A DNA stretch of 64,000 nucleotides, taken from NCBI GenBank assembly GCA_963709345.1, contig CAVPVX010000010.1, forward strand, positions 128,001 through 192,000. The letters are read 5' to 3'. Positions 1 to 14,614 of the stretch are shown one piece after another. Source of the DNA: an uncultured Actinomycetes bacterium. Lineage in GTDB: Bacteria; Actinomycetota; Thermoleophilia; UBA2241. Numbering within the stretch: position 1 is the stretch's first letter; every line of letters starts with the position of its first letter. A program made the position numbers and the translations under genes. The notes beneath the pieces were generated by a model. It ran no database searches. It was not told the origin of the DNA and saw only the letters and a list, made by a program, of their open reading frames with translations.

Positions 1-1124
1 CGGAAATGCCCGAGCTCGTCAAGAAGTTCGCCGTCGACCAGGTCGTGTTCGCGTACTCGGACGTACCATATGAGTACGTCATGCATCGCTCGGCTCTCGT
101 CAACTCCCTCGGCGCCGACTTCCGCCTGCTCGGCCCGGAGCACACCATGGTCAAGAGCACCAAGCCGGTGATCGCGGTCTGCGCCGTGCGTACCGGCGCC
201 GGCAAGAGCCAGACCACGCGCAAGATCCAGACCACCCTGCGCGCCGCCGGCAAGAAGGTCGTCAGCATCCGTCACCCCATGCCCTACGGCGACCTGGTCG
301 CCCAGAAGTGCATGCGCTTCGCCACGGTCGAGGACCTCGCCAAGAACAACTGCACCATCGAGGAGATGGAAGAGTACGAGCCGCACGTCACGGCCGGCAA
401 CGTGATCTACTCCGGCGTCGACTACGAGGCCATCGTGCGCGAGGCCGAGAAGGAAGCCGACATCATCCTCTGGGATGGCGGCAACAACGACTTCTCCTTC
501 TACAAGCCCGACCTGTACATCACCGTCGCCGACCCGCATCGTCCGGGTGACGGCCTCAGGTACTATCCCGGCGAGGTCAACCTTCGGCTCGCCGACGTCG
601 TCGTGCTCAACAAGGTCGACTCCGCAGATGCCGCCGGCATCCAGGCCGAGCTCGAGGCGGTGCGCTCGGTCAATCCCGACGCACGTATCATCATGGGCGC
701 TTCGCCGCTCACCGTCGACAAGCCCGAGCTCGTCCAGGGCAAGCGCGTCCTCGTGGTCGAAGACGGCCCGACGCTCACGCACGGCGAGATGAAGTACGGC
801 GCCGGCACCGTGGCCGCCAGGCAGCTCGGTGCCGCCGAGTTCATCGACCCGCGTCCGTTCGCCGTCGGCGAGATCACCTCCACCTTCGAGAAGTACCCGA
901 ACATCGGCGTGCTTCTTCCGGCGATGGGCTACTCGCAGGAGCAGCTCAACGACATGGAGACCACGATCAACAACTCCGGTGCCGACGTGATCGTCATCGG
1001 TACGCCGATGGATCTTCGCCGCATCATCAACATCAAGATCCCCGCGGTGCAGGTCAAGTACGACCTCCAGGAGATCGGCAGCCCGACGCTTGAGGACATC
1101 TTGCGCGAGCGCAAGTTCATCTAG
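1..1124 (+). CDS. arcE: Arginine synthetase (ArcE)-like P-loop protein, COG2403 / cyclic 2,3-diphosphoglycerate synthetase-like family; 5' end lies outside the window
   Basis: Motifs VRTGAGKSQT (P-loop), IRHPMPYGDL, TIEEMEEYEPH, WDGGNND, VEDGPTLTHG, LPAMGYS. Directly upstream of carbamoyltransferase and carbamate kinase genes. Confidence 0.75.
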   Translation, partial: EMPELVKKFAVDQVVFAYSDVPYEYVMHRSALVNSLGADFRLLGPEHTMVKSTKPVIAVCAVRTGAGKSQTTRKIQTTLRAAGKKVVSIRHPMPYGDLVAQKCMRFATVEDLAKNNCTIEEMEEYEPHVTAGNVIYSGVDYEAIVREAEKEADIILWDGGNNDFSFYKPDLYITVADPHRPGDGLRYYPGEVNLRLADVVVLNKVDSADAAGIQAELEAVRSVNPDARIIMGASPLTVDKPELVQGKRVLVVEDGPTLTHGEMKYGAGTVAARQLGAAEFIDPRPFAVGEITSTFEKYPNIGVLLPAMGYSQEQLNDMETTINNSGADVIVIGTPMDLRRIINIKIPAVQVKYDLQEIGSPTLEDILRERKFI

Positions 1125-1141
1125 GAGCCGCTCGTAGCATT

Positions 1142-1181
1142 TCGGCGGCGGCCGGTTTGCGGAACAACCGGCCGCCGCCGA
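1142..1181 (+). other. Intergenic 16-bp stem-loop between arcE and arcB (RNA stabiliser or partial terminator)
   Basis: tcggcggcggccggtt (1142-1157) is the reverse complement of aaccggccgccgccga (1166-1181). No strong U-tract follows. Confidence 0.6.
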
Positions 1182-1238
1182 GCCGTCTGTTGCGGCGGCT
1201 CACCAGTTCAGCCAACTATCCCGTCAAGGGAGGGTTGC

Positions 1239-2201
1239 TTGTCTACCCCGTTGAATCAATGCATCTCCGAACTCGATCTCACCGGTCGCAGCTTCCTCAC
1301 GATCCACGAGTTCACACCAGCTGAAATCACCGCGTTGCTCGATCTGACCACGGAGTTCAAGGGAGCGCGGAAGCGCCGTGAGCTGACGCCACTGCTTGCC
1401 GGACGCACTGTCGCGATGATCTTCATGAAGACCTCGACGCGCACCCGGGTGAGCTTCGAGGTCGGCATCGCCCAGCTCGGCGCCCAGGCCATGTTCCTCA
1501 ACGCCAACGACATCCAGCTTCACGTCGGGGAGACCATCAAGGACACGGCCAACGCGATGAGCCGCTACGTGGATTGCATCATGATCCGCACCTTTGCCCA
1601 CAAGGACGTCGAGGACCTCGTGGCCTACGGGCAGATCCCGATCATCAACGGGCTCACCGACCTGCATCACCCGTGCCAGGCACTCTCGGACGCACTCACG
1701 ATCCGCGAGCACGTCGGCCGCCTCGAGGGCGTCAGGGTGGTCTACTCAGGCGACGGCAACAACGTCGCCCACTCCCTGGCGGAGGTGGGCGCGAAGACAG
1801 GGATGCATGTCGTGATCTGTTCACCAGCCGGGTATCGGCCCGACACTGCGATCATCGAACGGGCCCGCGAGGACGCCAAGGCGACCGGTGCGACCATCGA
1901 GCTCACGAGTGATCTCAAGACCGCCGTCAAGGGCGCGGACGTCATCTACACCGACACGTTCACGAGCATGGGCCAGGAGGCGGACCACGACGTCCGCCTC
2001 GCCGGCCTGCGCGACTACCAAGTCAATATGGACCTGCTACGCCTCGCTGGCCCGCAGGCCAAGGTCATGCACTGCCTGCCGGCGCACTGGGGTGAAGAGA
2101 TCACCGAAGAAGTGCTCTACTCGCCGCGCTCCGTGGTCTTCGACCAGGCGGAGAACCGGCTGCACGCACAAAAGGCGATCATGGCAGCAGTGATCGCATG
2201 A
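1239..2201 (+). CDS. argF: Ornithine carbamoyltransferase, probably catabolic
   Basis: STRT carbamoyl-phosphate motif, HPCQ, DTFTSMG, HCLP, DQAENRLHAQKA. TTG start after GGGAGGG. Confidence 0.92.
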   Translation: MSTPLNQCISELDLTGRSFLTIHEFTPAEITALLDLTTEFKGARKRRELTPLLAGRTVAMIFMKTSTRTRVSFEVGIAQLGAQAMFLNANDIQLHVGETIKDTANAMSRYVDCIMIRTFAHKDVEDLVAYGQIPIINGLTDLHHPCQALSDALTIREHVGRLEGVRVVYSGDGNNVAHSLAEVGAKTGMHVVICSPAGYRPDTAIIERAREDAKATGATIELTSDLKTAVKGADVIYTDTFTSMGQEADHDVRLAGLRDYQVNMDLLRLAGPQAKVMHCLPAHWGEEITEEVLYSPRSVVFDQAENRLHAQKAIMAAVIA

Positions 2202-3205
2202 GCCTCGTGAAGGAGTCAGGTAACGTGCCTCAGAACTCAGGCGAACGCGGAAAGACAGTAGTGATTGCCCTCGGTGGCAATGCGATCTTGCAGCCGGGGC
2301 AGATCGGGACCTTCGAAGAGCAGCTTGTGAATGTCGATGGCGCTATGCGCTGCATCACCGATCTTGTCGAGGGCGGCTGGCGCGTCGTGCTCACCCACGG
2401 CAACGGCCCCCAGGTCGGTGATCTTCTCGTGCAGAATGCGCTCGCCGCAGGGACTGTACCGGTGATGCCGATGGATGTCTGCGGCGCCGAGAGCCAGGGC
2501 GAGATCGGCTACATGCTCGAGCAGACCCTCTTGAATCACTTCCTGAAGCGGCACATCTCCGTGCCGGTCGTCACAGTGCTTACGCAAGTTGCCGTGAGCG
2601 CCACAGACCAGGCGTTCGAGAACCCGACCAAGCCGGTCGGCGCGTTCTACTCTGAGGACGAGGCAAAGAAGATGATGCTTGAGCAGGGCCACGTCATGCG
2701 GGAAGACGCCGGCAGGGGCTGGCGGCGCGTGGTTCCTAGCCCCGAACCCGTGGAGATCGTCCCTCGCAAAGCGATCGTCGACATGGTCGACGACGGTATC
2801 TGTGTCATCTGCTCCGGCGGGGGCGGCGTTCCCGTGGTGCGCGCCAAGGATGGCACACTATCGGGCATCGCGGCAGTCATCGACAAGGACCTGGCTGCGG
2901 CACTGCTTGCCAAGGAAGTGGCCGCTGACGCGCTTCTCATTCTCACCGACGTGTCTCAGGCCTACGTTGACTACAACACCCCGGACCAGCGTGGTCTTGG
3001 CATCGTGAGTCTCACCGAGATGCAGGGATACGCTGACGACGGACACTTCAAGGCCGGCTCCATGGGCCCCAAGGTGAAGGCATGCATGCGGTTCGTGGAG
3101 GGCGGGGGGACGGCAGTCATCGGCAGCCTGACCGAAGTGGTCCAGGCGATGGCCGGTGAGGCTGGGACCACCATCGTCCCTGACGACGACCCACGGACCG
3201 AGTAG
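2198..3205 (+). CDS. arcC: Carbamate kinase
   Basis: IALGGNA, THGNGPQVG, NPTKPVG, GWRRVVPSP, GGGGVPV, VIDKD, GSMGPKV. ATGA overlap with the upstream gene. Confidence 0.96.
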   Translation: MSLVKESGNVPQNSGERGKTVVIALGGNAILQPGQIGTFEEQLVNVDGAMRCITDLVEGGWRVVLTHGNGPQVGDLLVQNALAAGTVPVMPMDVCGAESQGEIGYMLEQTLLNHFLKRHISVPVVTVLTQVAVSATDQAFENPTKPVGAFYSEDEAKKMMLEQGHVMREDAGRGWRRVVPSPEPVEIVPRKAIVDMVDDGICVICSGGGGVPVVRAKDGTLSGIAAVIDKDLAAALLAKEVAADALLILTDVSQAYVDYNTPDQRGLGIVSLTEMQGYADDGHFKAGSMGPKVKACMRFVEGGGTAVIGSLTEVVQAMAGEAGTTIVPDDDPRTE

Positions 3206-3444
3206 CGGCTGTCGACAAGGCGAGGCAAGGGGAGGATCAGCGGCCGAATCGCGAATGGCCCTTGCGAGCCGGGATCGTACAAGAGGGAGCGGGAGGCGGG
3301 TGACCGTCGCCCGTTCCCTCCGTCAGCGGAGAGTGCGCGGGGAGGAGAGAAGACACCGACTCCAGGGGTGCCGATCCCGTTCGCACTGACTCGCTTCCCA
3401 GGAGGTGAGACCCAGCCATCCGCTCGACACGGACCGTCGGGGCG

Positions 3445-4278
3445 CTATTCGGAGGTGCTGGAACACGACGGTGCTCCTATCATCTCGACGTGTACCGCAT
3501 GCGCCTCGGTGTCGGTCGGGTTGCTCCATGTCCACGGAGTGCCGGGAGGCAGCATGATCGAGTCGCCGGGGCCCAGAAGAGCGGCCTCTTCAATGCTTTC
3601 GCCCGTGACGAGACGGAACTCGAACCAGCCCTCCGTGACGAACACGAACGTCTCGTAGCGACGCGAGAGATACCCGCCGCTGCCCGATCCTGCCGGCGCG
3701 ATGATGAGAGCGGGCTCCATACAGTGGCCGAGCCCGGCAAGCTCTTCGTATCTGACGCCACCTGCCAACGAGATTCCCCGACGGCTTGCTGCTCGTTCGA
3801 CGTGCCTGTCGGCGGGTTGCGGTCCGCTGGAGAAGACGCTCTGGGGCAGATTGAGCGCGTCGGCGATCCGCGCCATGGTCGTCGCCGATGCGCCAGACTC
3901 GCCGCGCTCGAGACTGGACAGGAACGACTCGGACAGCTCGGCATCGGCCGCCAGCGCCTGGAGGGTCAGACCGCGGGACAGGCGTATGTGCCGCACTCTG
4001 GCGCCCAACGACGAGTCGCCTGCGTCGGGATTCTGCTTCGGTGCCGAAAGCGTCCCGGAGCTGAGCATGGCGGCCGCGTTCCACCCATGCTGGCGCCGCA
4101 GTCCGACCACCTGGCGTACCCTGCGGTAGCACTCCGCGTCGTAGAGCCGCTGTCCACCCGCGCTCCTGTGCGGCGAGATCAAGCCTCGCCGCTCCCAGTT
4201 TCGCAGCGTCTGAGGACTCACGCCGACGGCTCTGCTCAACTCTCCAATTGTTCGGTAGGTTTTGTCGTCTTCATGCAT
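3445..4278 (-). CDS. Transcriptional regulator: MerR-type HTH + XRE HTH + cupin sensor domain
   Basis: TIGELSRAVGVSPQTLRNWERRGLI..R..GGQRLY (MerR); LGARVRHIRLSRGLTLQALA..LSSLERG (XRE); ETFVFVTEG..LGPGDSI..P (cupin). Confidence 0.88.
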   Translation of the reverse strand: MHEDDKTYRTIGELSRAVGVSPQTLRNWERRGLISPHRSAGGQRLYDAECYRRVRQVVGLRRQHGWNAAAMLSSGTLSAPKQNPDAGDSSLGARVRHIRLSRGLTLQALAADAELSESFLSSLERGESGASATTMARIADALNLPQSVFSSGPQPADRHVERAASRRGISLAGGVRYEELAGLGHCMEPALIIAPAGSGSGGYLSRRYETFVFVTEGWFEFRLVTGESIEEAALLGPGDSIMLPPGTPWTWSNPTDTEAHAVHVEMIGAPSCSSTSE

Positions 4279-4333
4279 CCCTTCGACCTCACGTGTAGCG
4301 GTCCGCCTAGGAAAAAGGCGCCCGGAGGACCGA

Positions 4334-4361
4334 TTGACACTCTACAGTCGACTGGTAGAAT
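4334..4361 (+). promoter_or_regulatory. Sigma70-type promoter of the amidinotransferase unit, with a palindromic putative operator in the spacer
   Basis: TTGACA (4334-4339), 16-bp spacer, TG-n-TAGAAT (4356-4361). The perfect palindrome CAGTCGACTG (4345-4354) lies inside the spacer. Confidence 0.7.
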
Positions 4362-4432
4362 ATCAGCGTTACAGCGTCTCAATGAAGATTTCTCATCTTG
4401 CGGACGACGCGGCGGCAACAACAAGGAGGTTC

Positions 4433-4501
4433 ATGCGCGGTAGCTTGCTGACTAGTCCAAGTGCCTCCGAGACTGACGGTACTGCCTCGGCAGCGCACTG
4501 A
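4433..4501 (+). CDS. Putative 22-aa leader peptide MRGSLLTSPSASETDGTASAAH
   Basis: Perfect SD AAGGAGGT (4423-4430) just before ATG 4433. Lies between the promoter and the amidinotransferase start. Confidence 0.3.
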   Translation: MRGSLLTSPSASETDGTASAAH

Positions 4502-4531
4502 CCCAAATGCCCCTACCAGAGGAGTGAAGAT

Positions 4532-5743
4532 ATGCCTACTATCGTCAAGTCGTGGGATGAGTGGTCGCCACTCAAGCGCGTGATCATCGGGCGTCCGGAG
4601 GGGACCAACGTTCCGGCTCCCGAGCCGGCTTGGTTCTACGACCTGCCGAATGGCGGGTACCCGCTCGGCTCGCACGGCCCGTTCCCGCAGGAAATGGTCG
4701 ACGCCGCCAACGAGCAGATGGACTACTTCGTCGCCCAGATCGAGAAGCGCGGCGCCATCGTCGAGCGCATCGACATCCAGCCCTTCATGATGAACAAGCC
4801 CCTCTGCTCGCCGCTCGGCTGGGTCCATGAGGGCGCGCACGGCGTGAACAACGTCCGCGACGTCACCACGATCCACGGCAACTACATCATCGACGCCACG
4901 ACGGTCCGCCGCTCCCGCGTCTTTGAGCGCTTCAACCTCCGGCCGATCTTCGAGCGCTACTGCGAGGAAGATCCCGAGGCTGTGCACTTCTCCGCGCCGT
5001 TCCCGATGCTCACCGACGAGTCGTACGTGAACATCTCCGGCACCGGCGCGCCGGACTACTACCATTACTACGAGAACGTGTGGACCGACGAGGAGAAGCG
5101 CGACCGCCTCTACAACTCCGAGTTCCAGCTCGCTGAGAAGGAAGCCCTCTGGGATTCCGCCGACACCATGCGTTTCGGCAAGGACTGCTTCCACCAGATC
5201 TCCTGCGTGACCAACAAGAAGGGCGTAGACTGGCTGAAGCGCATGTTCGCCTCCCTCGGCCTGCGGCTGCACCACATCACGTTCGACACGCCGATGGATC
5301 CGTCCAAGCAGAAGCCGGAGAACTTCCATCCGTGGCACATCGACGTCAACTTCGTGCCGCTGCGCCCGGGTCTCGTCATGACCAACCCGGACTGGAAGCC
5401 GCGCACTCCTGAGGTCTTCGAGCTCTTCAAGCTCAACGATTGGGAGATGATCGAGGCCGCACGCCCGACGCGCGTCCACAAGAACGACGTCTTCCTGACC
5501 GGCCTCTACGAGGGTAAGTCCTGGATCTCGATGAACACCTTCTCGTTCGACGAGAAGACCGTGTTCGTCGAGGCCGGCGAGACGGCGTACTGCGAGCAGC
5601 TTGAGAAGCTCGGCTTCGACGTCGTGCCGATCCCGTACGAGAAGGTCATTCCATTCGGTGGGGCGCTGCACTGCACCACCCTGGACGTCCACCGCGAGTC
5701 CGAGTGTGTGGACTACTTCCCGAAGCAGGTAAAGGGATACTGA
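4532..5743 (+). CDS. Amidinotransferase (glycine / inosamine-phosphate amidinotransferase family)
   Basis: N-terminal SWDEWSPLKRVIIG. Catalytic Asp/His/Cys context WDSAD, WHID, GGALHCTTLD. SD GAGGAG. Confidence 0.9.
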   Translation: MPTIVKSWDEWSPLKRVIIGRPEGTNVPAPEPAWFYDLPNGGYPLGSHGPFPQEMVDAANEQMDYFVAQIEKRGAIVERIDIQPFMMNKPLCSPLGWVHEGAHGVNNVRDVTTIHGNYIIDATTVRRSRVFERFNLRPIFERYCEEDPEAVHFSAPFPMLTDESYVNISGTGAPDYYHYYENVWTDEEKRDRLYNSEFQLAEKEALWDSADTMRFGKDCFHQISCVTNKKGVDWLKRMFASLGLRLHHITFDTPMDPSKQKPENFHPWHIDVNFVPLRPGLVMTNPDWKPRTPEVFELFKLNDWEMIEAARPTRVHKNDVFLTGLYEGKSWISMNTFSFDEKTVFVEAGETAYCEQLEKLGFDVVPIPYEKVIPFGGALHCTTLDVHRESECVDYFPKQVKGY

Positions 5744-5760
5744 GTCGAATCGCGCAGAAC

Positions 5761-5788
5761 AGGAGGGCGCCGCACGTGGCGCCCTCCT
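5761..5788 (+). terminator. Stem-loop after the amidinotransferase
   Basis: aggagggcgcc-gcacgt-ggcgccctcct, 11-bp stem. Weak U-tract. Confidence 0.5.
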
Positions 5789-6126
5789 GTGCTGCATCCA
5801 AGCAGCGTTGTCCCCCAAGGACAAGGGGAAACATGCGGGCCCCACGCCAAACGGCACGACCCGCGCTCTTCCCCGGGAGAGGGCTCTCGGGGCTTGTGCG
5901 GCGCCCGTGCACGACCGCTGCGCGTAGCCGGTCGTTACCGGCTTTGAACGGCGATCGCGCACGCATGCCGCGTGCGGCCATCTTCGGCCGCGTTCCGTAT
6001 CGTTGTCTTCCGTACTCATTCAGCATGCGCTCGGTGTCGGCAGGGGATAGATCCGCCACCGGGCGGACGAGGGGGAGATCGTGATGCAAACAGGGTGCCA
6101 TGGGATAATCGAAGGGGGTTTGACCA

Positions 6127-7653
6127 GTGGATAAGTTCGAAATCGGCCTTTTCCTGCTCATCGCTTTTTTCGCCATAGTCGGTATGTCCACGTATTTCCT
6201 CGTACGTAAGAGCGGTAAGCGCTTCATCATCGCCGGCAAGTCGCTGCCATTCTTCATCATCGGAACGATGCTGTTCGCCCAGGCGCTGGATGCCAACGCC
6301 ACGCTGGGGAACACTGGTGCCGCCTACGGCAGTGGCTTCTGGTGGGGGTTCCAGTTCCCGCTGGGCCTGGCCCTCTGCCTGTTCATCACCGGTATCTGGT
6401 TCGCCAAGCCGCTGAACCGGATGAACCTCATGACGCTGCCCGACTATTACTACCGGCGCTACGGCAGCGCGACAGAGGTCATCGTCTCCGTGCTGATGGC
6501 CGTGAGCTTCATCATCCTCGTGGCCGGTAACCTGGCGGGCTGTGCCTGGATCATCCACATCATCTTCGGCGTAGGCTACGTCCCGTCACTCATCATCATC
6601 AGCCTGATCATCATGGCCTACACCGTCAGCGGCGGGCTCTTCTCGTGCGCCGCGACCGACATCGTGCAGCTGTATCCGGCGTTCATCGCCTTCGTGGTGG
6701 GGACGATCTGGCTGGTCGTCGACGGCGGTGGCTGGTCCGAGTACGCCGCCGTGATCCCGGACGGGTACTTCAGCATGGCCGGCCTGACGTCGTTCGACGA
6801 CGGCGCGCTTGTCGTCTGGGCCGGCATCCTGGCGCTGGCGATCGGCGATATCGTCGCACTGGACTTCATGGAGCGCATCTTCTCCGCCAAGAGCCCGGAA
6901 ACGGCGCGGAGAGGCTGCTTCTTTGCCGGCGTCATGACGCTCGTCGTCGGCTTCTGCGCTTCTCTCATGGGCCTGATGGCGTTCAAGCTGATCCCCGGCG
7001 GCGTGGACGACCCGCGGTCGGTAATCATCACTATTGCGACCGCATCGTTGCCGTTCCTCCTGGGCCTCTTCGTTCTCGGCGGCATCCTCGGCGCCGGCTT
7101 GTCCACCGCCAACGGTGGCTCTCTCGGAATCTCCGCCGTCTTCGCCCGGAACATCATGCAGAGGAACATCTTCCTGCCGAGGATCCGCAGGCAGGCCAAG
7201 GCCGAGGGCAAGGACTTCCTGGAGGTCATGGAGTCGACCGACTGGCACAAGGCAGACCAGAAGCTGCTGTGGTACGCGCGACTCATGCTCATCCCCACGT
7301 TCGCGGCGGCCATCACGCTCGCCTACTATCGGCCTGAGCCGGGCATGCTGCTCGTCCTCGCGTTCGACGTGGTCTTTGCCGGCTGCGTCGCGCCCCTGAT
7401 CCTGGGGATGTACTGGAAGAAGGCCAACGCGTACGGCGCCGTGACGGCCGTCATCGTCGGCAGCGTGTTGCGTCTGGTGCTCTACTACACCATTCCGGTG
7501 GAGTGGGCCGGCATCGATACCATGATCCCGCCGGTCGTTTCGGTGGTGGTCATGGTGATCGTGTCGCTGGCCACACAGACGCAGAGTCCGCCGATGCACG
7601 AAGTGAACTTCGAGACGCCCGACGAAGCCGAGGTCGCTCGAGCACTCCGCTAG
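6127..7653 (+). CDS. Sodium:solute symporter (SSS) family transporter
   Basis: About 13 hydrophobic segments. Motifs FIIAGKSLP, TLPDYYYRRYG, YTVSGGL..ATD, LGMYWKKAN..GA. Confidence 0.9.
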   Translation: MDKFEIGLFLLIAFFAIVGMSTYFLVRKSGKRFIIAGKSLPFFIIGTMLFAQALDANATLGNTGAAYGSGFWWGFQFPLGLALCLFITGIWFAKPLNRMNLMTLPDYYYRRYGSATEVIVSVLMAVSFIILVAGNLAGCAWIIHIIFGVGYVPSLIIISLIIMAYTVSGGLFSCAATDIVQLYPAFIAFVVGTIWLVVDGGGWSEYAAVIPDGYFSMAGLTSFDDGALVVWAGILALAIGDIVALDFMERIFSAKSPETARRGCFFAGVMTLVVGFCASLMGLMAFKLIPGGVDDPRSVIITIATASLPFLLGLFVLGGILGAGLSTANGGSLGISAVFARNIMQRNIFLPRIRRQAKAEGKDFLEVMESTDWHKADQKLLWYARLMLIPTFAAAITLAYYRPEPGMLLVLAFDVVFAGCVAPLILGMYWKKANAYGAVTAVIVGSVLRLVLYYTIPVEWAGIDTMIPPVVSVVVMVIVSLATQTQSPPMHEVNFETPDEAEVARALR

Positions 7654-7668
7654 ACGCGTCTTGCTTGT

Positions 7669-7706
7669 GGGGCGGGGCGATCCTGCGGGATCGCCTCGCC
7701 CCTTTT
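7669..7706 (+). terminator. Rho-independent terminator after the SSS transporter
   Basis: 15-bp stem ggggcggggcgatcc / ggatcgcctcgcccc, tgcg loop, then TTTT. Confidence 0.8.
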
Positions 7707-7952
7707 CGCGTACGCCCGGCGTCGTCTGAGGACGCTCTGTTCGCGCTCTCCGCATCATCGAGCGCTTCGACAGCCTGCAAGACGCGACTTGGCTGCCGCC
7801 CGGCGCTGGCAGGGTCGCACACTCCACCGCCCCCTCGTCGGTCGTCTGACGTTCACCGGCACGCGTCAATCCGGTAGACTGCGCGCAACTCCCGGTGACT
7901 TGGCTTCGCACCCGCGGATGCCGCGCCCGGCCGCTTCAAGGAGACCACCTCG

Positions 7953-9317
7953 ATGGCAGCCAACCTCATCGACGACAGTCACCTCGTCAAGACGCGCGAG
8001 ATGTTCGCCAAGTGCCAGCAGGTCGTCTCCGGCGGCGAATCCAGCTACGCGCGCCTCATCGGTACGCGCCCGATCGTCATGGAGCGCGGCGAGGGCGCCT
8101 ACTTCTTCGACGTGGACGGCAACGCCTACATCGACTGGTGCATCGGCTACGGCCCCATGATCTTCGGCCACCGCCCCAAGCCGATCCTCGACTCGATCGT
8201 CGCCCAGATCACCCAGGGCGGCATGCTCTACACCTTCCCGCACGAGCTGGACTACGAGGTCGGCCGCAAGATCATCCAGGCGGTGCCCGGCATCGACCAG
8301 GTGCGCTTCGCCAACTCCGGCAGCGAGGCGACCCAAGCGGCGATCCGCCTCGCGCGTGCCTACACGGGCAAGGACAAGATCATGAAGTGGGAGGGGAGCT
8401 ACAACGGCTTCCTCGACTGTCACGCCTACTCGCACATCACGGCGATGGGGGCGGCCGGCACCGAGCGCTTTCCGCGCGTCCAGCCGTCCTCGGCCGGCAT
8501 TCCCAAGGCACTCGACGACACGATGGTCATCGGCTGCTTCAACGATCTGGACGCCGTCGAGACGGTCATCAGGCGCAACCGCGACGAGCTGGCCTGTGTG
8601 CTCGCGGAGCCGATCCTCGCCGACGCCGGCATCATCCCGCCGGTCCCCGGCTTCCTCGAGGGCCTGCGCCGCATCTGCGACGATAACGGCGTGCTCCTCG
8701 TCTTCGACGAGATCATCACCGGCTTCCGGGTCTCGCTCGGGGGCGCCCAGGAGCTGTACGGCGTCACCCCGGACATCACCTGCGTCGCCAAGGCGGTCGG
8801 AGGCGGCACGCCCGGCGCGGCGGCCTTCGGCGGCAAGAAGGAGATCATGGCACTCGAGGCCGACGGCACCGTGCTCCACGGCGGCACCTACAGCGGCAAC
8901 CCCATGACGCTGGCCGGCATGAACGCCGCGCTCGACATCCTGATCAACGACCGCGAGCGCGTGTACGGCCACCTCAACTCGATCGCCAACGCGATGGTCC
9001 AGGGCATGCGCGGCATCTTCACCGAGAACGGCGTGCCCGCGTACATCAGCCAGGTGGGGCCGATGTGGCAGGTGTTCTTCGGCCAGGAAGGCCCGGTCAC
9101 GAAGTACCGGCAGGCCCGGGCCAGCGACACCCGGTTCTTCGGCATGCTGCAGGCCGAGTGCCAGATGCGCGGCGTGTACTTCCACAACTTCAACTTCGAG
9201 CGCTTCTTCGCGAGCACGGCGCACACCAAGGCCGAGGTCGACCGCAGCCTCGAGGTGATCGCCACGGCGACGAAGATCGTGAAGGACCGGCTCTCGAATC
9301 TGCCGGCCGGGGTCTGA
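7953..9317 (+). CDS. Class-III PLP aminotransferase (GSA-aminomutase-like subfamily)
   Basis: DVDGNAYID, FANSGSEAT, FDEIITGFR, PDITCVAKAVGGG (PLP lysine), GTYSGNP. SD AAGGAG. Confidence 0.9.
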   Translation: MAANLIDDSHLVKTREMFAKCQQVVSGGESSYARLIGTRPIVMERGEGAYFFDVDGNAYIDWCIGYGPMIFGHRPKPILDSIVAQITQGGMLYTFPHELDYEVGRKIIQAVPGIDQVRFANSGSEATQAAIRLARAYTGKDKIMKWEGSYNGFLDCHAYSHITAMGAAGTERFPRVQPSSAGIPKALDDTMVIGCFNDLDAVETVIRRNRDELACVLAEPILADAGIIPPVPGFLEGLRRICDDNGVLLVFDEIITGFRVSLGGAQELYGVTPDITCVAKAVGGGTPGAAAFGGKKEIMALEADGTVLHGGTYSGNPMTLAGMNAALDILINDRERVYGHLNSIANAMVQGMRGIFTENGVPAYISQVGPMWQVFFGQEGPVTKYRQARASDTRFFGMLQAECQMRGVYFHNFNFERFFASTAHTKAEVDRSLEVIATATKIVKDRLSNLPAGV

Positions 9318-9443
9318 GACGGCCTGAGCGGCCGCGACACGAGTGGCCCGGGGGCGCCCGAGCGGCGCCGGTGGAGATGATGCGACGGGGGCGAGGCGGC
9401 CGGAAGGGCCACCCCGCCCCCGTCGTGCGCGTGCTGCCGGCCT

Positions 9444-9851
9444 TCAGCTCCGGGGTGCGTACCGCGTGAAGCCCTGCTCGTCGAAGTGCGGGTCGAGGCC
9501 GAGATAGCGGTCGATCTCACGGCGGCGCATCACCGCGAAGCTCACGCAGTCCACGAGACTGAGGCGACGCCGCCGTGCGGTCAGCAGCGCTTGCAGGCCG
9601 AGCGCGTGATCCGCATCGGTGACCCAGTGGATCTCGGCCATGGGGAGCATGTCGTCCATGAGTGTGCGGACCGCGTCCACGCCGAGACGCCGCTGCGTCA
9701 GGGCGGTCGTCTCGAGTACGACGTAGTTGCTGGTCACAAAGCCCTCGCCGTCGTCGATACCGCTGTCCCAAGCGGGGCGAAGGAGCTCGTGACCGACGTC
9801 GCCGATGTCGAGGAGAGCGTACAGAGCGGTGGTGTCGACGAACACAGTCAT
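9444..9851 (-). CDS. vapC: VapC-type PIN-domain toxin
   Basis: VFVDTTAL, YVVLET, LSLVDCVSF, LDPHF acidic PIN residues. ATGA-coupled to the upstream small gene. Confidence 0.9.
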   Translation of the reverse strand: MTVFVDTTALYALLDIGDVGHELLRPAWDSGIDDGEGFVTSNYVVLETTALTQRRLGVDAVRTLMDDMLPMAEIHWVTDADHALGLQALLTARRRRLSLVDCVSFAVMRRREIDRYLGLDPHFDEQGFTRYAPRS

Positions 9852-10099
9852 TCGTCGATGGAATCTGCGAAGTAGTCGTCGTGGCGCACGGAGACGTCGC
9901 CAAGCCCCGAGCGGAAGCGGCCGCAGGCCGCCTTGGCTCTGCGCCTGCGTTCGTCGAGGCTGACACCGGGGCGCTGCCGCAGCAAGCTCTCATCGACGGC
10001 GTTGCGCACCACAGCCGAGATCGAGACCTGACGCTCAGAGGCTTGGCGACGCAACGCCTCGACCGCGGACTCGGTGAACTGGATCTGCATGCGGATCAT
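9848..10099 (-). CDS. CopG / ribbon-helix-helix antitoxin (VapB-like)
   Basis: MIRMQIQFT..LRRQA....SISAVVR.AV and C-terminal DVSVRHDDY. ATG at 10099 follows GAGG. Confidence 0.85.
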   Translation of the reverse strand: MIRMQIQFTESAVEALRRQASERQVSISAVVRNAVDESLLRQRPGVSLDERRRRAKAACGRFRSGLGDVSVRHDDYFADSIDE

Positions 10100-10120
10100 G
10101 GTGCGCCTCACTTCGTCACT

Positions 10121-13391: not shown

Positions 13392-14614
13392 TGCGGCAGC
13401 TCCGTGGTCTCAACCCGGACGGCGCCTGCGACGGTCGCGAGCCACGCCGCCACGCCGCCGCTCACCGCGACCTCTGTGACGGGGCCGGGGACCGCGGCGA
13501 TGGTGAAGGCGGGGCCATCGCCGAGGCGACGCCCCCGGATGCGGTAGCCGGAGGCGGCGTCGTCACGCTCTGCCCAGACGGCGGTCCGGCCGTCGAAGGC
13601 AGGACCGACGAGCCCTGCGACGCCGGCCGCCACGGGGCGCGTCGCGCCTCCGTCGACGGAGGCGGCGAGGACGCTTCCTGCTGAGTCGACGCCTGCGGCG
13701 ACCTGTCCCCACACGAGCGTGCGCGCGCCGAGGGCGAAGCCCGTCAACTCGCCGCTCTGCCCGCCGGTCGCCAAGGGCCACGCGCGCCCACCGCTCAGCT
13801 CACGAGCCGTGAAGGGCCCGCTCGGCCCGCGAGACCAGACGACCAGCCCGTCCGAGACGACCGGCGTGCCGTACTCGGGGGCGATGTCGAACGGGGCGCC
13901 CGTGATGATGCGGACGCCGCCGAGGCGCGGCTCGCCGATCTTCGCCGCCGCGCACCACACCGCGGTCTCGCCGGACACGGAGGGGTACGAGTAGACGGAG
14001 CCGATGTCGGCCACGGCCCAGCGGCGCCCGCTCGCGGTGTCGTAGACGACCACCTGAGCCGCCAGTGCGCCCGTGGTGTCGGCCTCGAACCAGACCGCGT
14101 AGCGCTCGCCGACCGCGGGCGCCCAGGTCGAGCGCATGCCCGGACCCGGCCCGAGCAGGCGGAGCCTGCCGGAGGCGAGATCGAGATACTCGATGGACGG
14201 CCCGTTCTGCCAGAGCAGCCGTGGGCCGCTCAGCGCGAGGCCGCTGAACCGGCGCCCGGGACTGCCGGTGACGCGCCAGCCGTCTGTCGTCTCGGCGACG
14301 GCCGGTGGCCGCAGTGAATACGCGCGCTCCATGCGGAACCAGGCGGTGCCCAGAACCGCGCCTGCGAGCAGGACAAGGAGGGTGATGAGGCCGGCGCGCA
14401 GCCACGACGGCCGCCGTCCCGGGCGGGCGTCGCTGCTCGCCCCGGCGGCGAGGGGCGGAGCCGGGCACTCGTCGCCGCGCGGGTCGCTCACCTGACGTCG
14501 CTCCGCGCTGCGACACTCGTTCCCGGCCGCGGCCGGGGGTCGTCGTCTGGGCACACGCTCCTGCCGGCCATTCTGCGGACTCCGTTCCGGTGCCGTCGTG
14601 GACGGTACCGACAT
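13388..14614 (-). CDS. Hypothetical membrane-anchored protein with repeated beta-strand (propeller-like) units
   Basis: One TM helix, then repeats of the form P.VSG..AVW / P.FDG..AVW. Start uncertain. Confidence 0.65.
   Translation of the reverse strand: MSVPSTTAPERSPQNGRQERVPRRRPPAAAGNECRSAERRQVSDPRGDECPAPPLAAGASSDARPGRRPSWLRAGLITLLVLLAGAVLGTAWFRMERAYSLRPPAVAETTDGWRVTGSPGRRFSGLALSGPRLLWQNGPSIEYLDLASGRLRLLGPGPGMRSTWAPAVGERYAVWFEADTTGALAAQVVVYDTASGRRWAVADIGSVYSYPSVSGETAVWCAAAKIGEPRLGGVRIITGAPFDIAPEYGTPVVSDGLVVWSRGPSGPFTARELSGGRAWPLATGGQSGELTGFALGARTLVWGQVAAGVDSAGSVLAASVDGGATRPVAAGVAGLVGPAFDGRTAVWAERDDAASGYRIRGRRLGDGPAFTIAAVPGPVTEVAVSGGVAAWLATVAGAVRVETTELPQ

Follow-up and report, generated by a model that had tools for sequence, protein, structure and literature searches.

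The locus at the left end of a 64,000-nucleotide stretch of DNA (the window) from an uncultured Actinomycetes bacterium raises the question of why an amidinotransferase (AT) and a sodium:solute symporter (SSS) lie beside genes for an arginine synthetase-like protein (ArcE), an ornithine carbamoyltransferase (OTC), and a carbamate kinase (CK). The first-pass annotation had proposed an energy pathway in which an imported guanidino compound donates its amidino group to ornithine and the resulting arginine is used to make ATP. Open reading frames screened with a codon-position GC filter recover all seven genes where they had been placed (Table 1), and the cluster is common to uncultured bacteria of many phyla, most of them oxygen-avoiding. 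The interpretation stands in part: the linkage is conserved, and neither an arginine deiminase (ADI) nor NRPS/PKS genes are present, whereas the aminotransferase and the cupin regulator fall outside the conserved set. On the basis of family membership and gene linkage, a route in which an imported guanidino compound and ornithine give arginine, from which ArcE-OTC-CK form ATP and carbamoyl phosphate and restore ornithine, is given somewhat better than even chances.

Table 1. Features of the locus, with positions in the window
Feature	Position	Strand	Basis and remarks
arcE-like (arginine synthetase family)	1..1124	+	3' 373 codons in window; 440 aa whole
Inverted repeat, perfect 16 nt, 8-nt loop	1142..1181		Repeat search; between arcE and OTC
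Ornithine carbamoyltransferase (OTC)	1239..2201	+	TIGR00658 422.8 bits vs cut-off 280.85; exact start uncertain
Carbamate kinase (CK)	2198..3205	+	TIGR00746 405.3 bits vs 358.25
Regulator, MerR HTH + XRE HTH + Cupin_2	3445..4278	-	Pfam; Cupin_2 29.5 bits vs 27.2
Sigma-70-like promoter match TTGACA-16-TAGAAT, extended TG	4334..4361	+	11/12 matches; upstream of AT
Amidinotransferase (AT), AGAT/SxtG/HsvA/StrB1 clade	4532..5743	+	PDB sequence matches, fold search, alignment
SSS sodium:solute symporter	6127..7653	+	PF00474 103 bits
Class-III aminotransferase, HemL-like	7953..9317	+	NF000818 400.4 vs 398

The left edge of the window cuts the arcE-like gene, whose ATG lies 198 nt farther upstream (G000:C10:127802). 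Profile searches with the protein return no Pfam or NCBIfam family, and its sole notable PDB relative is cyclic 2,3-diphosphoglycerate synthetase (9sxb, E 1.1e-8); more than 120 homologs with 79–91% identity are named "predicted GTPase" or "cyclic 2,3-diphosphoglycerate synthase". The protein is 95% identical to its counterpart in a same-genus twin (L004) and 52–66% identical to 47 ArcE-family ORFs in the AT loci of other phyla, and the gene occurs in 75 of the 89 genomes of the window's order. From sequence comparisons that span relatives other than the characterized TK2200 itself, the gene is assigned to the arginine synthetase family as arcE-like. The inverted repeat behind it, which is not followed by a T-run, was detected as the pair at L003 15142-15181 and is also visible as a self-match. 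For the OTC, the putrescine carbamoyltransferase model was rejected (312.8 bits against a cut-off of 500). OTCs from operons in other phyla likewise score at the equivalog level (TIGR00658, 429–437 bits). CK overlaps the end of OTC by 4 nt, its start codon running into the OTC stop codon, and this CK is the only one in the genome.

AT has no Pfam match even at E ≤ 10, and its PDB sequence matches are SxtG (3.5e-39), HsvA (5.5e-38), AGAT (1.5e-34), and StrB1 (5.2e-27). The intact Asp/His/Cys triad reported earlier is confirmed: D110, D208, H269, D271, and C381 correspond to AGAT D170, D254, H303, D305, and C407, and all five catalytic residues are invariant in an alignment of 15 family members. 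With the AF2 model (pLDDT 74.5, pTM 0.80), Foldseek retrieves AGAT at 5.7e-30 (TMt 0.84). The four solved amidinotransferases lie at E values of 1e-24 to 6e-30 and 25–29% identity, compared with 1e-12 or weaker and 10–14% for the superfamily hydrolases. The pocket differs from that of AGAT, since Trp288 takes the place of Arg322 and 9–10 residues are inserted before the catalytic His loop. Internally the family is extremely conserved, with a mean column identity of 80% across phyla. The promoter search gives one site in 9.9 kb and shuffles average 1.0; hence the site upstream of AT is a consensus match only.

The closest solved structures to SSS are the choline transporter CHT1 (8.5e-18) and vSGLT (2.5e-14), and homologs of 56–65% identity, with generic names only, are found in taxa that also have AT. 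In the same-genus twin, the closest relative, an APC permease replaces the symporter, yet regulator-AT is retained beside ArcE-CK. The regulator is divergently transcribed, and its 65%-identical copy in this twin is the only one found beside AT, contrary to the place it had been given in the set. The aminotransferase, also counted in that set, has no ortholog in the 78 related loci, where the aminotransferases reach at most 29% identity to it; the aminotransferases at other loci accompany argJ/argB. It is a member of the window's cluster and lies outside the conserved module. Its candidate identities as TIGR00713 (387 vs 527) and GntE (357 vs 525) fall below the cut-offs, and the genome's true hemL is found elsewhere.

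Linkage was assessed in 79 loci, 78 from one-genome-per-species contigs and the window, with 84 AT genes from at least eight phyla. All 78 related loci come from MAGs, some with ambiguous binning, such as L032 and L033, which are identical yet titled as different phyla. Among the 68 AT genes with enough upstream sequence, 30 have ArcE as their immediate upstream neighbor (within 400 bp, in the same orientation), and among 63 AT genes, 29 are immediately followed by SSS. Where at least 6 kb is available on both sides (29 AT genes), ArcE, OTC, or CK occurs within 6 kb of 24, and these three plus SSS accompany 12. Consecutive orders in the 79 loci are ArcE-AT (33), AT-SSS (35), OTC-CK-ArcE-AT (15), and ArcE-AT-SSS-CK (10), and the position of AT beside ArcE/OTC/CK is held through about 11 gene orders; AT is alone in 15 loci, many of them short contigs. 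In one clade of the AT tree, where phyla are mixed, 49 of 52 rows show the link to ArcE/OTC/CK. Four genomes of the window's taxonomic order carry an AT of a second subfamily, about 40% identical, directly in front of arcE (L109–L111 from alignment; G079 from coordinates alone), and a truncated third AT copy lies upstream of the window's own arcE. Several AT paralogs, each with its own SSS, occur in one genome (L042, L056, and L057, one assembly by accession). Since the linkage recurs across phyla, the arrangement is far beyond chance, and the association of AT, SSS, ArcE, OTC, and CK that the first-pass annotation had put up for testing is conserved across loci. Operons spread by transfer are non-independent observations.

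The arcE-OTC pair is native to the lineage. It occurs without regulator, AT, SSS, or aminotransferase in seven of eight relatives, with an OTC 71–81% identical to that of the window. AT-SSS is patchy and was probably acquired by transfer, and the window's AT-SSS-aminotransferase unit looks to have been added horizontally next to the native pair. Transfer of this front end is suggested by the conflicting identities of AT (84–85% to Chloroflexia copies) and ArcE (57% to Chloroflexia ArcE, 81–88% to order relatives), by the cassette-free arcE-OTC pairs in relatives, and by a regional GC of 0.62–0.68 against 0.70 for the contig. Directly upstream of the window, outside the view of the earlier reader, lie an agmatinase-family gene and the truncated AT paralog. 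Three signs point to rearrangement at the locus: this truncated copy is fused behind the agmatinase gene, the 5' end of arcE is duplicated, and a gene for a PIN toxin lies downstream. Contigs from a DNA run, 3–12% divergent from the window, cover CK, regulator, AT, SSS, and aminotransferase in part, and bridge gene to gene only CK-regulator and no other pair.

In the proposed pathway, a portable "guanidino-group harvesting" front end of importer and AT would be docked onto the arginine synthetase pathway. The symporter would import a guanidino compound other than L-arginine, and AT would transfer its amidino group to L-ornithine through a Cys381 thiouronium intermediate, giving L-arginine and the de-amidinated amine. 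ArcE would convert arginine, ADP, and Pi to citrulline, NH3, and ATP; OTC would phosphorolyze citrulline to ornithine and carbamoyl phosphate; and CK would make a second ATP, or the carbamoyl phosphate would pass to pyrimidines. Ornithine would be regenerated and thus act catalytically. In the window, the AT-SSS-aminotransferase unit has a promoter-like site of its own and the divergent cupin regulator. Neither a conserved enzyme for the leftover amine nor a riboswitch or other donor-naming feature was found, which counts against the proposed pathway. The characterized ArcE, TK2200, takes L-arginine only and refuses agmatine, guanidine, and D-arginine (PMC11032458), a limitation that would give a clear reason for an AT in front of ArcE. 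The literature search gave no paper in which an amidinotransferase and arginine synthetase are mentioned together, and no description of the proposed route.

Because amidinotransfer is reversible and the free-energy change of ArcE is small, direction is not fixed by gene content alone. The latter is given as -6.8 kJ/mol in the available part of the ArcE report (PMC11032458). The arginine-forming direction of AT is favored by the conserved adjoining importer, whose type is swapped in the twin, by the AT paralogs with their own SSS, and by the lack of ArgG in three of three genomes of the order with an AT at least 60% identical (vs 19 of 89 overall). The lack of ADI noted earlier for the window holds for its whole genome, 98% complete (arcA reaches no more than 33 bits, the cut-off being 489), and ADI exceeds the cut-off in none of the 50 AT-bearing genomes. 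ArgG and ArgH were not found in the window's genome either, so its ArcE may also make arginine. Few carriers have ArgG (17 of 50 over the cut-off; 31–33 without it), and the trio may therefore also be an anabolic route to arginine and carbamoyl phosphate. That ArcE may run towards arginine in the carriers without ArgG counts against the proposed pathway, as do the separate transcription of AT-SSS from arcE-OTC-CK in the window and the anabolic neighborhoods of other operons, which adjoin argJ/argD/argB in some Actinomycetota loci and argB with an argA-like GNAT gene in Desulfobacterales. In favor of the arginine-forming direction of AT, ArgG and CarB are both retained in 12 of the 50 carriers, where the trio is thus dispensable for biosynthesis. 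Carbamoyl phosphate synthetase (CPS) is missing from 25 of the 50 and present in the window's genome. These gaps, and PyrR before CK-ArcE in 6 loci, fit carbamoyl-phosphate supply by the pathway as in Thermococcus, according to the available part of that report (PMC13260591). With ArcE near equilibrium and ArgG/ArgH and/or CPS missing from many carriers, the module probably supplies arginine and carbamoyl phosphate too and is thus likely to be amphibolic, not catabolic alone.

The same genes could run in reverse, with CK, OTC, and ArcE building arginine from NH3, CO2, ornithine, and two ATP, and AT loading the amidino group onto an amine, whether imported or endogenous, to form an osmolyte, signal, storage, or defense compound while ornithine is recycled. 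To our knowledge, arginine is the donor for all characterized AT relatives (AGAT, SxtG, HsvA, and StrB1). Such biosynthetic guanidinylation would also suit the absence of ArgG/ArgH from the window's genome, the 31–33 carriers likewise without ArgG, and the arginine-biosynthesis genes adjoining some operons; ArcE itself is reversible and, in the available part of PMC11032458, is proposed to be biosynthetic in organisms without ArgG/ArgH. However, an uptake-type symporter conserved beside AT, with another importer in the twin, suits a scavenged substrate over a precursor, and the several AT-SSS pairs in one genome likewise argue against guanidinylation. The loci share no conserved methyltransferase, ligase, NRPS/PKS, or exporter; in the window's genome the reported lack of NRPS/PKS extends to all contigs, with no condensation domain and a lone ketoacyl synthase on another contig. 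Canonical ArgG and CarB stand alongside the operon in 12 carriers, and CK would be an odd source of carbamoyl phosphate in a genome with CPS, such as that of the window. Guanidinylation is considered rather unlikely.

A lower probability still is given to the AT-like protein being a superfamily hydrolase (deiminase, amidinohydrolase, or dihydrolase) that acts on the imported compound, with the ArcE/OTC/CK link reflecting shared regulation of nitrogen-rich substrates and no shared intermediate. The Cys/His/Asp machinery is common to the superfamily, so the triad cannot separate transfer from hydrolysis, and a cyanobacterial protein predicted to be an amidinotransferase reportedly proved to act as an arginine dihydrolase (ArgZ). 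After the transferases, the best structural match is nitroguanidine hydrolase NnhA, and Trp288 and the insertion make the pocket unlike that of AGAT. Nevertheless, the protein groups firmly with the four solved amidinotransferases in both sequence and fold, and a hydrolase would not need the ArcE seen immediately upstream in 30 of 68 cases. Genes for processing urea or ureido compounds, such as urease or a specialized carbamoyltransferase, are not conserved, the operon carbamoyltransferases being equivalog-level OTCs. It is very improbable that the adjacency in the window is functionally meaningless, a transferred regulator-AT-SSS-aminotransferase cassette having landed beside native arcE-OTC-CK at a rearrangement-prone spot. 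The separately transcribed units with their divergent regulator, the absence of the cassette from eight of eight sampled relatives, and the truncated AT, duplicated arcE end, and PIN toxin gene would agree with chance, but about 11 gene orders in different phyla show the association, as does the second AT subfamily, the twin keeps regulator-AT beside ArcE-CK with a different transporter, and the truncated copy shows an earlier AT next to the window's arcE.

The proposed pathway shares with the ArcE-ArcB-ArcC pathway of Thermococcus kodakarensis, in the available parts of its descriptions (Michimori et al. 2024, PMC11032458; 2026, PMC13260591), an arcE family gene adjoining OTC and CK, the lack of ADI, an expected two ATP per arginine, and the capacity to supply carbamoyl phosphate. 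In contrast to that system, AT is close to the trio in the window and at least 48 other loci, and in 35 loci AT has a dedicated importer next to it; neither AT nor such an importer appears in those parts of the two papers. Together they would admit non-arginine guanidino compounds and make ornithine catalytic rather than stoichiometric. The ADI pathway (ArcA-ArcB-ArcC) likewise couples guanidino groups to substrate-level phosphorylation through citrulline and carbamoyl phosphate. Unlike the ADI pathway, the cluster's genomes have no ArcA, and the deimination step would conserve energy by way of ArcE; the ADI pathway usually has an arginine/ornithine antiporter as partner, whereas the window has an SSS symporter and AT. 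The agmatine deiminase pathway (AgDI, putrescine carbamoyltransferase, and CK) also takes an imported non-arginine guanidino compound to carbamoyl phosphate and ATP, but there the compound itself is deiminated and a dedicated carbamoyltransferase is required, whereas the carbamoyltransferase of the window is a true OTC. By moving the amidino group onto ornithine first, one downstream enzyme set could serve many donors and yield two ATP instead of one.

AT has the fold, the Cys-His-Asp triad, and the two guanidino-binding Asp residues of AGAT, SxtG, HsvA, and StrB1, yet it is only 25–29% identical to them and has no Pfam match, and it differs from AGAT in the Trp at the Arg322 position and the insertion before the His loop. 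Its context would be catabolic or salvage, in contrast to the secondary metabolism of the biosynthetic amidinotransferases. As in the urea cycle and the cyanobacterial ornithine-ammonia cycle (ArgZ), ornithine would be the recycled carrier of a carbamoyl/amidino unit. In those cycles ATP is consumed for fixing or storing nitrogen, which is set free by hydrolysis, whereas the proposed cycle would convert an external amidino donor to NH3 and CO2 with a gain of ATP.

The cluster named in the first-pass annotation is present in full. An arcE-like gene, an ornithine carbamoyltransferase (OTC), a carbamate kinase (CK), a regulator, an amidinotransferase (AT), a sodium:solute symporter (SSS), and a class-III aminotransferase are all found in the window, with arcE, OTC, and CK contiguous. 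The source genome is a 98%-complete assembly of 3.11 Mb with about 70% G+C, and the window spans G000:C10:128001-192000 in it; genes were called from an ORF listing with a codon-position GC filter. The G+C content of the cluster is 0.62-0.68, versus 0.70 for the contig. Unrelated minus-strand genes and a PIN toxin gene come after the aminotransferase. The latter (PIN-domain, VapC-like; 9444-10111, minus strand) lies directly after the cluster, and a small ORF upstream of it could encode its antitoxin. Metatranscriptomic contigs from one library, 85-91% alike, span the AT (4541-5731) and the SSS (5827-7094 and 7274-7651); they may derive from DNA, carry neither strand nor level, and are no proof of transcription.

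Features of the cluster in window coordinates
Feature	Position	Strand	Remarks
arcE-like gene	1-1124	+	ATG 198 nt before window; 440 aa in all
OTC	1239-2201	+	ORF
CK	2198-3205	+	start codon overlaps OTC stop codon
Regulator, MerR HTH + XRE HTH + cupin	3445-4278	-	domain search
AT	4532-5743	+	ORF
SSS symporter	6127-7653	+	ORF
Class-III aminotransferase	7953-9317	+	ORF
Sigma-70-like site TTGACA-16-TAGAAT	4334-4361		before AT
Perfect 16-nt hairpin	between arcE and OTC		

Neither Pfam (E<=10) nor NCBIfam (E<=0.001) has a family that the AT matches. Among solved structures, its closest relatives by sequence are SxtG (3.5e-39), HsvA (5.5e-38), AGAT (1.5e-34), and StrB1 (5.2e-27), and a profile of its family retrieves SxtG at 1.6e-63 and AGAT at 4e-60. 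Residues D110, D208, H269, D271, and C381 align with D170, D254, H303, D305, and C407 of AGAT, respectively, and do not vary among 15 family members. In AGAT, C407, H303, and D254 form the catalytic Cys-His-Asp triad, and D170 and D305 are the Asp pair holding the guanidinium group. Trp288 of the AT occupies the position of AGAT Arg322, the carboxylate-binding residue, Trp268 occupies that of Met302, and the His loop is preceded by an insertion of 9-10 residues. In the PDB-match alignment, HsvA also harbors a Trp at the Arg322 position, and despite this it uses arginine as the donor.

The AlphaFold (AF2) model of the AT (pLDDT 74.5, pTM 0.80) predicts a five-fold beta/alpha propeller whose nearest solved relatives are the amidinotransferases of the AGAT/StrB1/SxtG/HsvA clade. 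Foldseek ranks AGAT first (5.7e-30, TMt 0.84), followed by SxtG (1.2e-28), HsvA (1.3e-27), and StrB1 (8e-24), with TM values of 0.80-0.86; the superfamily hydrolases NnhA, arginine deiminase (ADI), DDAH, and ArgZ come next, at 1e-12 or weaker. The family comprises 469 database matches, the best 120 of which are 62-96% identical and derive from metagenome-assembled genomes (MAGs) of Desulfobacterales, Dehalococcoidia, Peptococcaceae, and others. Mean column identity in the family alignment is 80%. Public labels for the family are inconsistent: JGI uses "glycine amidinotransferase", and NCBI uses "serine/threonine protein kinase", the second of which is a probable systematic misannotation. Elsewhere in the source genome, an AT-like gene that is 28% identical (L102:4953-6026, i.e., G000:C1:398953-400026) adjoins ureohydrolase-family and enolase-superfamily genes.

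The arcE-like protein belongs to no curated Pfam or NCBIfam family, and among solved structures only cyclic 2,3-diphosphoglycerate (cDPG) synthetase is a notable relative (1.1e-8). ArcE itself is distantly similar to this enzyme (PMC11032458), and homologs of the arcE-like protein are annotated as "predicted GTPase" or "cDPG synthase", as described for ArcE homologs in the same work. The shared similarity to cDPG synthetase and the matching annotations lend indirect support to a predicted membership in the arginine synthetase family typified by TK2200, the ArcE characterized in Thermococcus kodakarensis. The OTC is assigned by TIGR00658 (422.8 vs a cut-off of 280.85) and stays below the models for putrescine carbamoyltransferase (312.8 vs 500), AOTCase (176.6 vs 288), and ATCase (156.8 vs 236.95). 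CK scores 405.3 against a TIGR00746 cut-off of 358.25. The SSS is recognized by PF00474 (103.2 bits, residues 33-445), and no substrate-specific NCBIfam model exceeds its cut-off (PutP, 80.7 vs 515.5; PanF, 80.3 vs 328). Its homologs carry generic names only, and its nearest solved relatives are choline transporters, a kinship that, at most, hints at an organic cation as substrate. The aminotransferase is HemL-like but falls under the hemL equivalog cut-off (TIGR00713, 387.3 vs 527.3); an identification as HemL was rejected, the true hemL (590.6 bits) being located on contig C7.

The first-pass annotation had made its pathway depend on a linkage conserved in other genomes, and such conservation holds for AT, SSS, ArcE, OTC, and CK. 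From 128 relatives (one genome per species), the best 80 were kept, giving 78 loci, all from MAGs, and thus 79 loci with the window; gene families were defined by de novo clustering of all ORFs in the 78 loci and the window region. ArcE is present in 49 of the 79 loci, SSS in 45, CK in 39, and OTC in 38, counts that are non-independent where operons have spread by transfer. ArcE lies directly upstream of the AT (<=400 bp, same strand) for 30 of the 68 AT genes with enough sequence, out of 84 AT genes in total, and SSS lies directly downstream in 29 of 63. When the AT is flanked by at least 6 kb on both sides (n = 29), at least one of ArcE, OTC, and CK lies within 6 kb in 24 cases, and the full set of four partners, SSS included, in 12. 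Consecutive ArcE-AT pairs occur in 33 of the 79 loci and AT-SSS pairs in 35. The string OTC-CK-ArcE-AT is found in 15 loci, with SSS next in 7 of these, and ArcE-AT-SSS-CK is found in 10. About eleven gene orders retain the AT with ArcE, OTC, or CK. The AT stands alone in 15 loci and with SSS only in 8, many of these being short contigs.

OTCs in operons of other phyla reach the equivalog level, and the window ArcE is 52-66% identical to 47 ArcE-family ORFs from loci of other phyla, and 95% identical to that of its same-genus twin (L004). AT sequences (n = 82) were placed in a maximum-likelihood tree (quick search, SH-aLRT support only), in which 49 members of a clade of 52 are linked to ArcE, OTC, or CK, and the phyla within this clade are intermixed, indicating that the module has been transferred between lineages. 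Two loci, L032 and L033, are identical contigs in MAGs titled Desulfatiglandales and Sedimentisphaerales, respectively; given this binning ambiguity, phylum counts are not literal. No cultured carrier is present among the 78 loci or in a cluster look-up of 10 proteins. Comparative genomics strongly supports a functional coupling of the predicted AT and importer to ArcE-OTC-CK.

Accessory genes near the 84 AT genes include a HAD-IIA phosphatase (15), an agmatinase-family gene (7), an aldehyde dehydrogenase (5), and M24/creatinase-like paralogs (5), and some operons have argJ/argD/argB or argB/argA-like genes as neighbors. One family (F15), which has no PDB relative, occurs in up to five tandem copies beside the AT in Aminicenantes and Eubacteriales; as a lead only, it may be an M24 peptidase or creatinase-like (atlas; Pfam, 35 bits). 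Regulators vary by lineage and comprise cupin-HTH, Lrp/AsnC, sigma-54 activators, and PyrR, the last preceding CK-ArcE in 6 loci. These PyrR neighbors tie the AT module to pyrimidine control in genomes without CPS. PyrR lies between AT and CK, or beside the AT, in L016, L028, L011, L067, L071, and L019, and an aspartate carbamoyltransferase gene is next in L071.

Within the window's order (89 genomes), ArcE is found in 75 genomes, including 29 of the 32 of high quality, with full-length matches that are 75-95% identical; CK is found in 80 of the 89 and ArgG in 70. Relatives of the AT at E<=1e-60 occur in 13 of the 89, and those at least 60% identical in only 3 (the window; the twin genome, G067, 90%; and G072, 62%). 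Around arcE in 8 relatives, OTC follows in 7, and CK, the regulator, AT, SSS, and the aminotransferase are there in none. The window AT is 84-85% identical to copies from Chloroflexia, whereas for ArcE the identity to the Chloroflexia counterparts is only 57%. On account of this contrast, the absence of the cassette from relatives, and the lower G+C of the cluster, the regulator-AT-SSS-aminotransferase unit looks like an acquired front end beside a native arcE-OTC. A co-acquisition of CK with the AT was considered and dropped, as CK is widespread in the order and merely not beside arcE-OTC in the 8 sampled relatives. At the twin locus, regulator-AT is kept near ArcE-CK, and an APC permease, which has only generic amino-acid-transporter matches, and a metallophosphoesterase occupy the place of the SSS.

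The AT-ArcE link is seen independently in a second AT subfamily (~40% identical), intact copies of which immediately precede arcE in four more genomes from the order, three of them by alignment (L109-L111) and one by coordinates alone (G079). Readings of the L109-L111 copies as pseudogenes or selenocysteine proteins were rejected; the single stop, in L111, is where a slightly shorter protein naturally ends, and all three reading frames are uninterrupted.

The DNA upstream of the window, contained in the longer stretch L003, retains traces of a further AT. An agmatinase-family gene lies ~880 nt upstream of arcE (TIGR01230, 191 bits vs a cut-off of 174), and a start-less AT remnant of 132 codons follows in frame behind its TAG stop (L003:11926-13317, i.e., G000:C10:125926-127317). 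The remnant corresponds to the C-terminal third of another AT, with the catalytic Cys motif kept and the first two thirds lost, and is 63% identical to the window AT over 128 residues; its junction with the agmatinase-family gene resembles a scar left by deletion or recombination. In addition, the ribosome-binding site and initial codons of arcE are present twice, as a 50-nt direct repeat with 78% identity (L003:13578-13627 and 13780-13829), the extra copy lying 202 nt ahead of the real start. The remnant and the duplicated arcE start indicate that this spot was rearranged and that an AT gene once already adjoined this arcE.

Farther upstream, ~7.7 kb before arcE, a gene for a stand-alone protein of 432 aa with LOR/SDH and ArgZ-like C-terminal domains (L003:4954-6252) is another arginine- or ornithine-related neighbor. 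Genes for a B12-binding protein (L003:2803-3435) and a URO-D-family, methyltransferase-like protein (L003:10309-11655) are also located upstream, with genes for an ODP-type di-iron lactamase-fold protein and an EamA transporter between them. The B12-binding and URO-D-family genes hint at a corrinoid methyl-transfer system.

The first-pass annotation saw no ADI in the window, and the same applies to the source genome, where the best match scores 33 bits against a cut-off of 489. ArgG and ArgH are also absent from this genome, CPS is present, and ArcE and CK each occur once. A second OTC (L101, G000:C2:176001-192000) adjoins ornithine racemase-like and GlmL-related ornithine-degradation (Or-4) genes and a 752-aa ORF, a neighborhood that suggests anaerobic ornithine fermentation. 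Among 50 AT-bearing genomes, ADI exceeds its cut-off in none (fragments in one), ArgG in 17 (fragments in 2 more), and CarB in 19 of the 25 with CarB matches; ArgG, CarB, and an ArcE-linked AT occur together in 12. The single-chromosome assemblies G002, G003, G012, and G020 are without ArgG, and the last three are also without CarB. In the window's order, all 3 genomes with an AT at least 60% identical are without ArgG, as are two with 48% copies. ArgG is missing in 5 of 13 carriers of AT-like genes vs 14 of 76 others, a descriptive comparison only, as the genomes are kin. Since the source genome has ArcE and neither ArgG nor ArgH, and since ArcE and CK are common in an order where 19 of 89 genomes have no ArgG, ArcE may be an arginine-forming enzyme in part of the order.

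ArcE catalyzes the reversible conversion of arginine, ADP, and Pi to citrulline, NH3, and ATP (free-energy change, -6.8 kJ/mol) and takes L-arginine only, D-arginine, agmatine, guanidine, and arginine dipeptides not being used (PMC11032458). In Thermococcales lacking CPS, carbamoyl phosphate is described as coming from the ArcE pathway (PMC13260591). An importer and an AT beside ArcE make sense if non-arginine guanidino compounds are first turned into L-arginine. In the proposed pathway, which is the preferred reading, the importer would bring in a guanidino compound other than L-arginine, and the predicted AT would move its amidino group onto ornithine, forming L-arginine. ArcE, OTC, and CK would then give citrulline, carbamoyl phosphate, up to two ATP, NH3, and CO2, with ornithine returned.

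Flow in the opposite direction, which would make the module biosynthetic, keeps a real though smaller share of the probability. The arginine-forming direction appears favored by the conserved uptake systems together with the replacement of one transporter type by another in the twin, by the several AT-SSS paralog pairs in one genome, and by the canonical anabolic enzymes kept in carriers along with the association with loss of ArgG. Given that the ArcE reaction lies close to equilibrium and that no other route exists in many carriers, the module probably has an amphibolic role, supplying energy, arginine, and carbamoyl phosphate. No riboswitch naming a ligand was found with Rfam in 7 loci, in the window at 1-10000 (E<=1), or in 13 further loci, the last yielding only unrelated T-box, SAM riboswitch, and tRNA matches. 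The first-pass annotation assigned removal of the leftover amine to the class-III aminotransferase; this step finds no support, as the AT loci share no conserved amine-processing enzyme and the window's own gene is local to its lineage. Speculatively, free guanidine, or donors leaving glycine, GABA, or putrescine, would fit the absence of a conserved downstream enzyme. With free guanidine, the leaving group would be ammonia, which would explain that absence.

In its widest form, the proposal is that a catalytic ornithine cycle, amounting to a urea cycle in reverse that is fed by an external amidino donor, operates in uncultured anaerobes of many phyla and conserves up to 2 ATP by substrate-level phosphorylation per amidino group of a non-arginine guanidino compound, with a donor that might even be free guanidine and with the importer-AT pair as a mobile adaptor to any resident ArcE pathway. 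This proposal is tentative, and we consider it somewhat likelier to fail than to hold as a whole.

Full-text literature searches returned nothing joining an amidinotransferase with arginine synthetase, although a gene-cluster figure in the supplement of the 2024 ArcE paper may show such neighbors without comment. The listings for amidinotransferase with carbamate kinase name no work on such a pathway. ArcE was recognized only in 2024, and the ArcE literature found, broader searches included, consists of two papers of the Atomi laboratory. If correct, the proposal would provide a function for a highly conserved family now labeled "serine/threonine protein kinase", and would help to explain arginine and pyrimidine metabolism in genomes without ArgG/ArgH, CPS, and ADI. 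Energy-limited anaerobes (Desulfobacterales, Dehalococcoidia, Peptococcaceae, Aminicenantes, Thermoleophilia, and others) would also have a new means of drawing ATP, arginine, and carbamoyl phosphate from guanidino compounds. Amidinotransferases are treated as biosynthetic in passages of a 2025 review of guanidine metabolism (PMC12623156), and the module described here would be the first catabolic or salvage role for an enzyme class known from biosynthesis.
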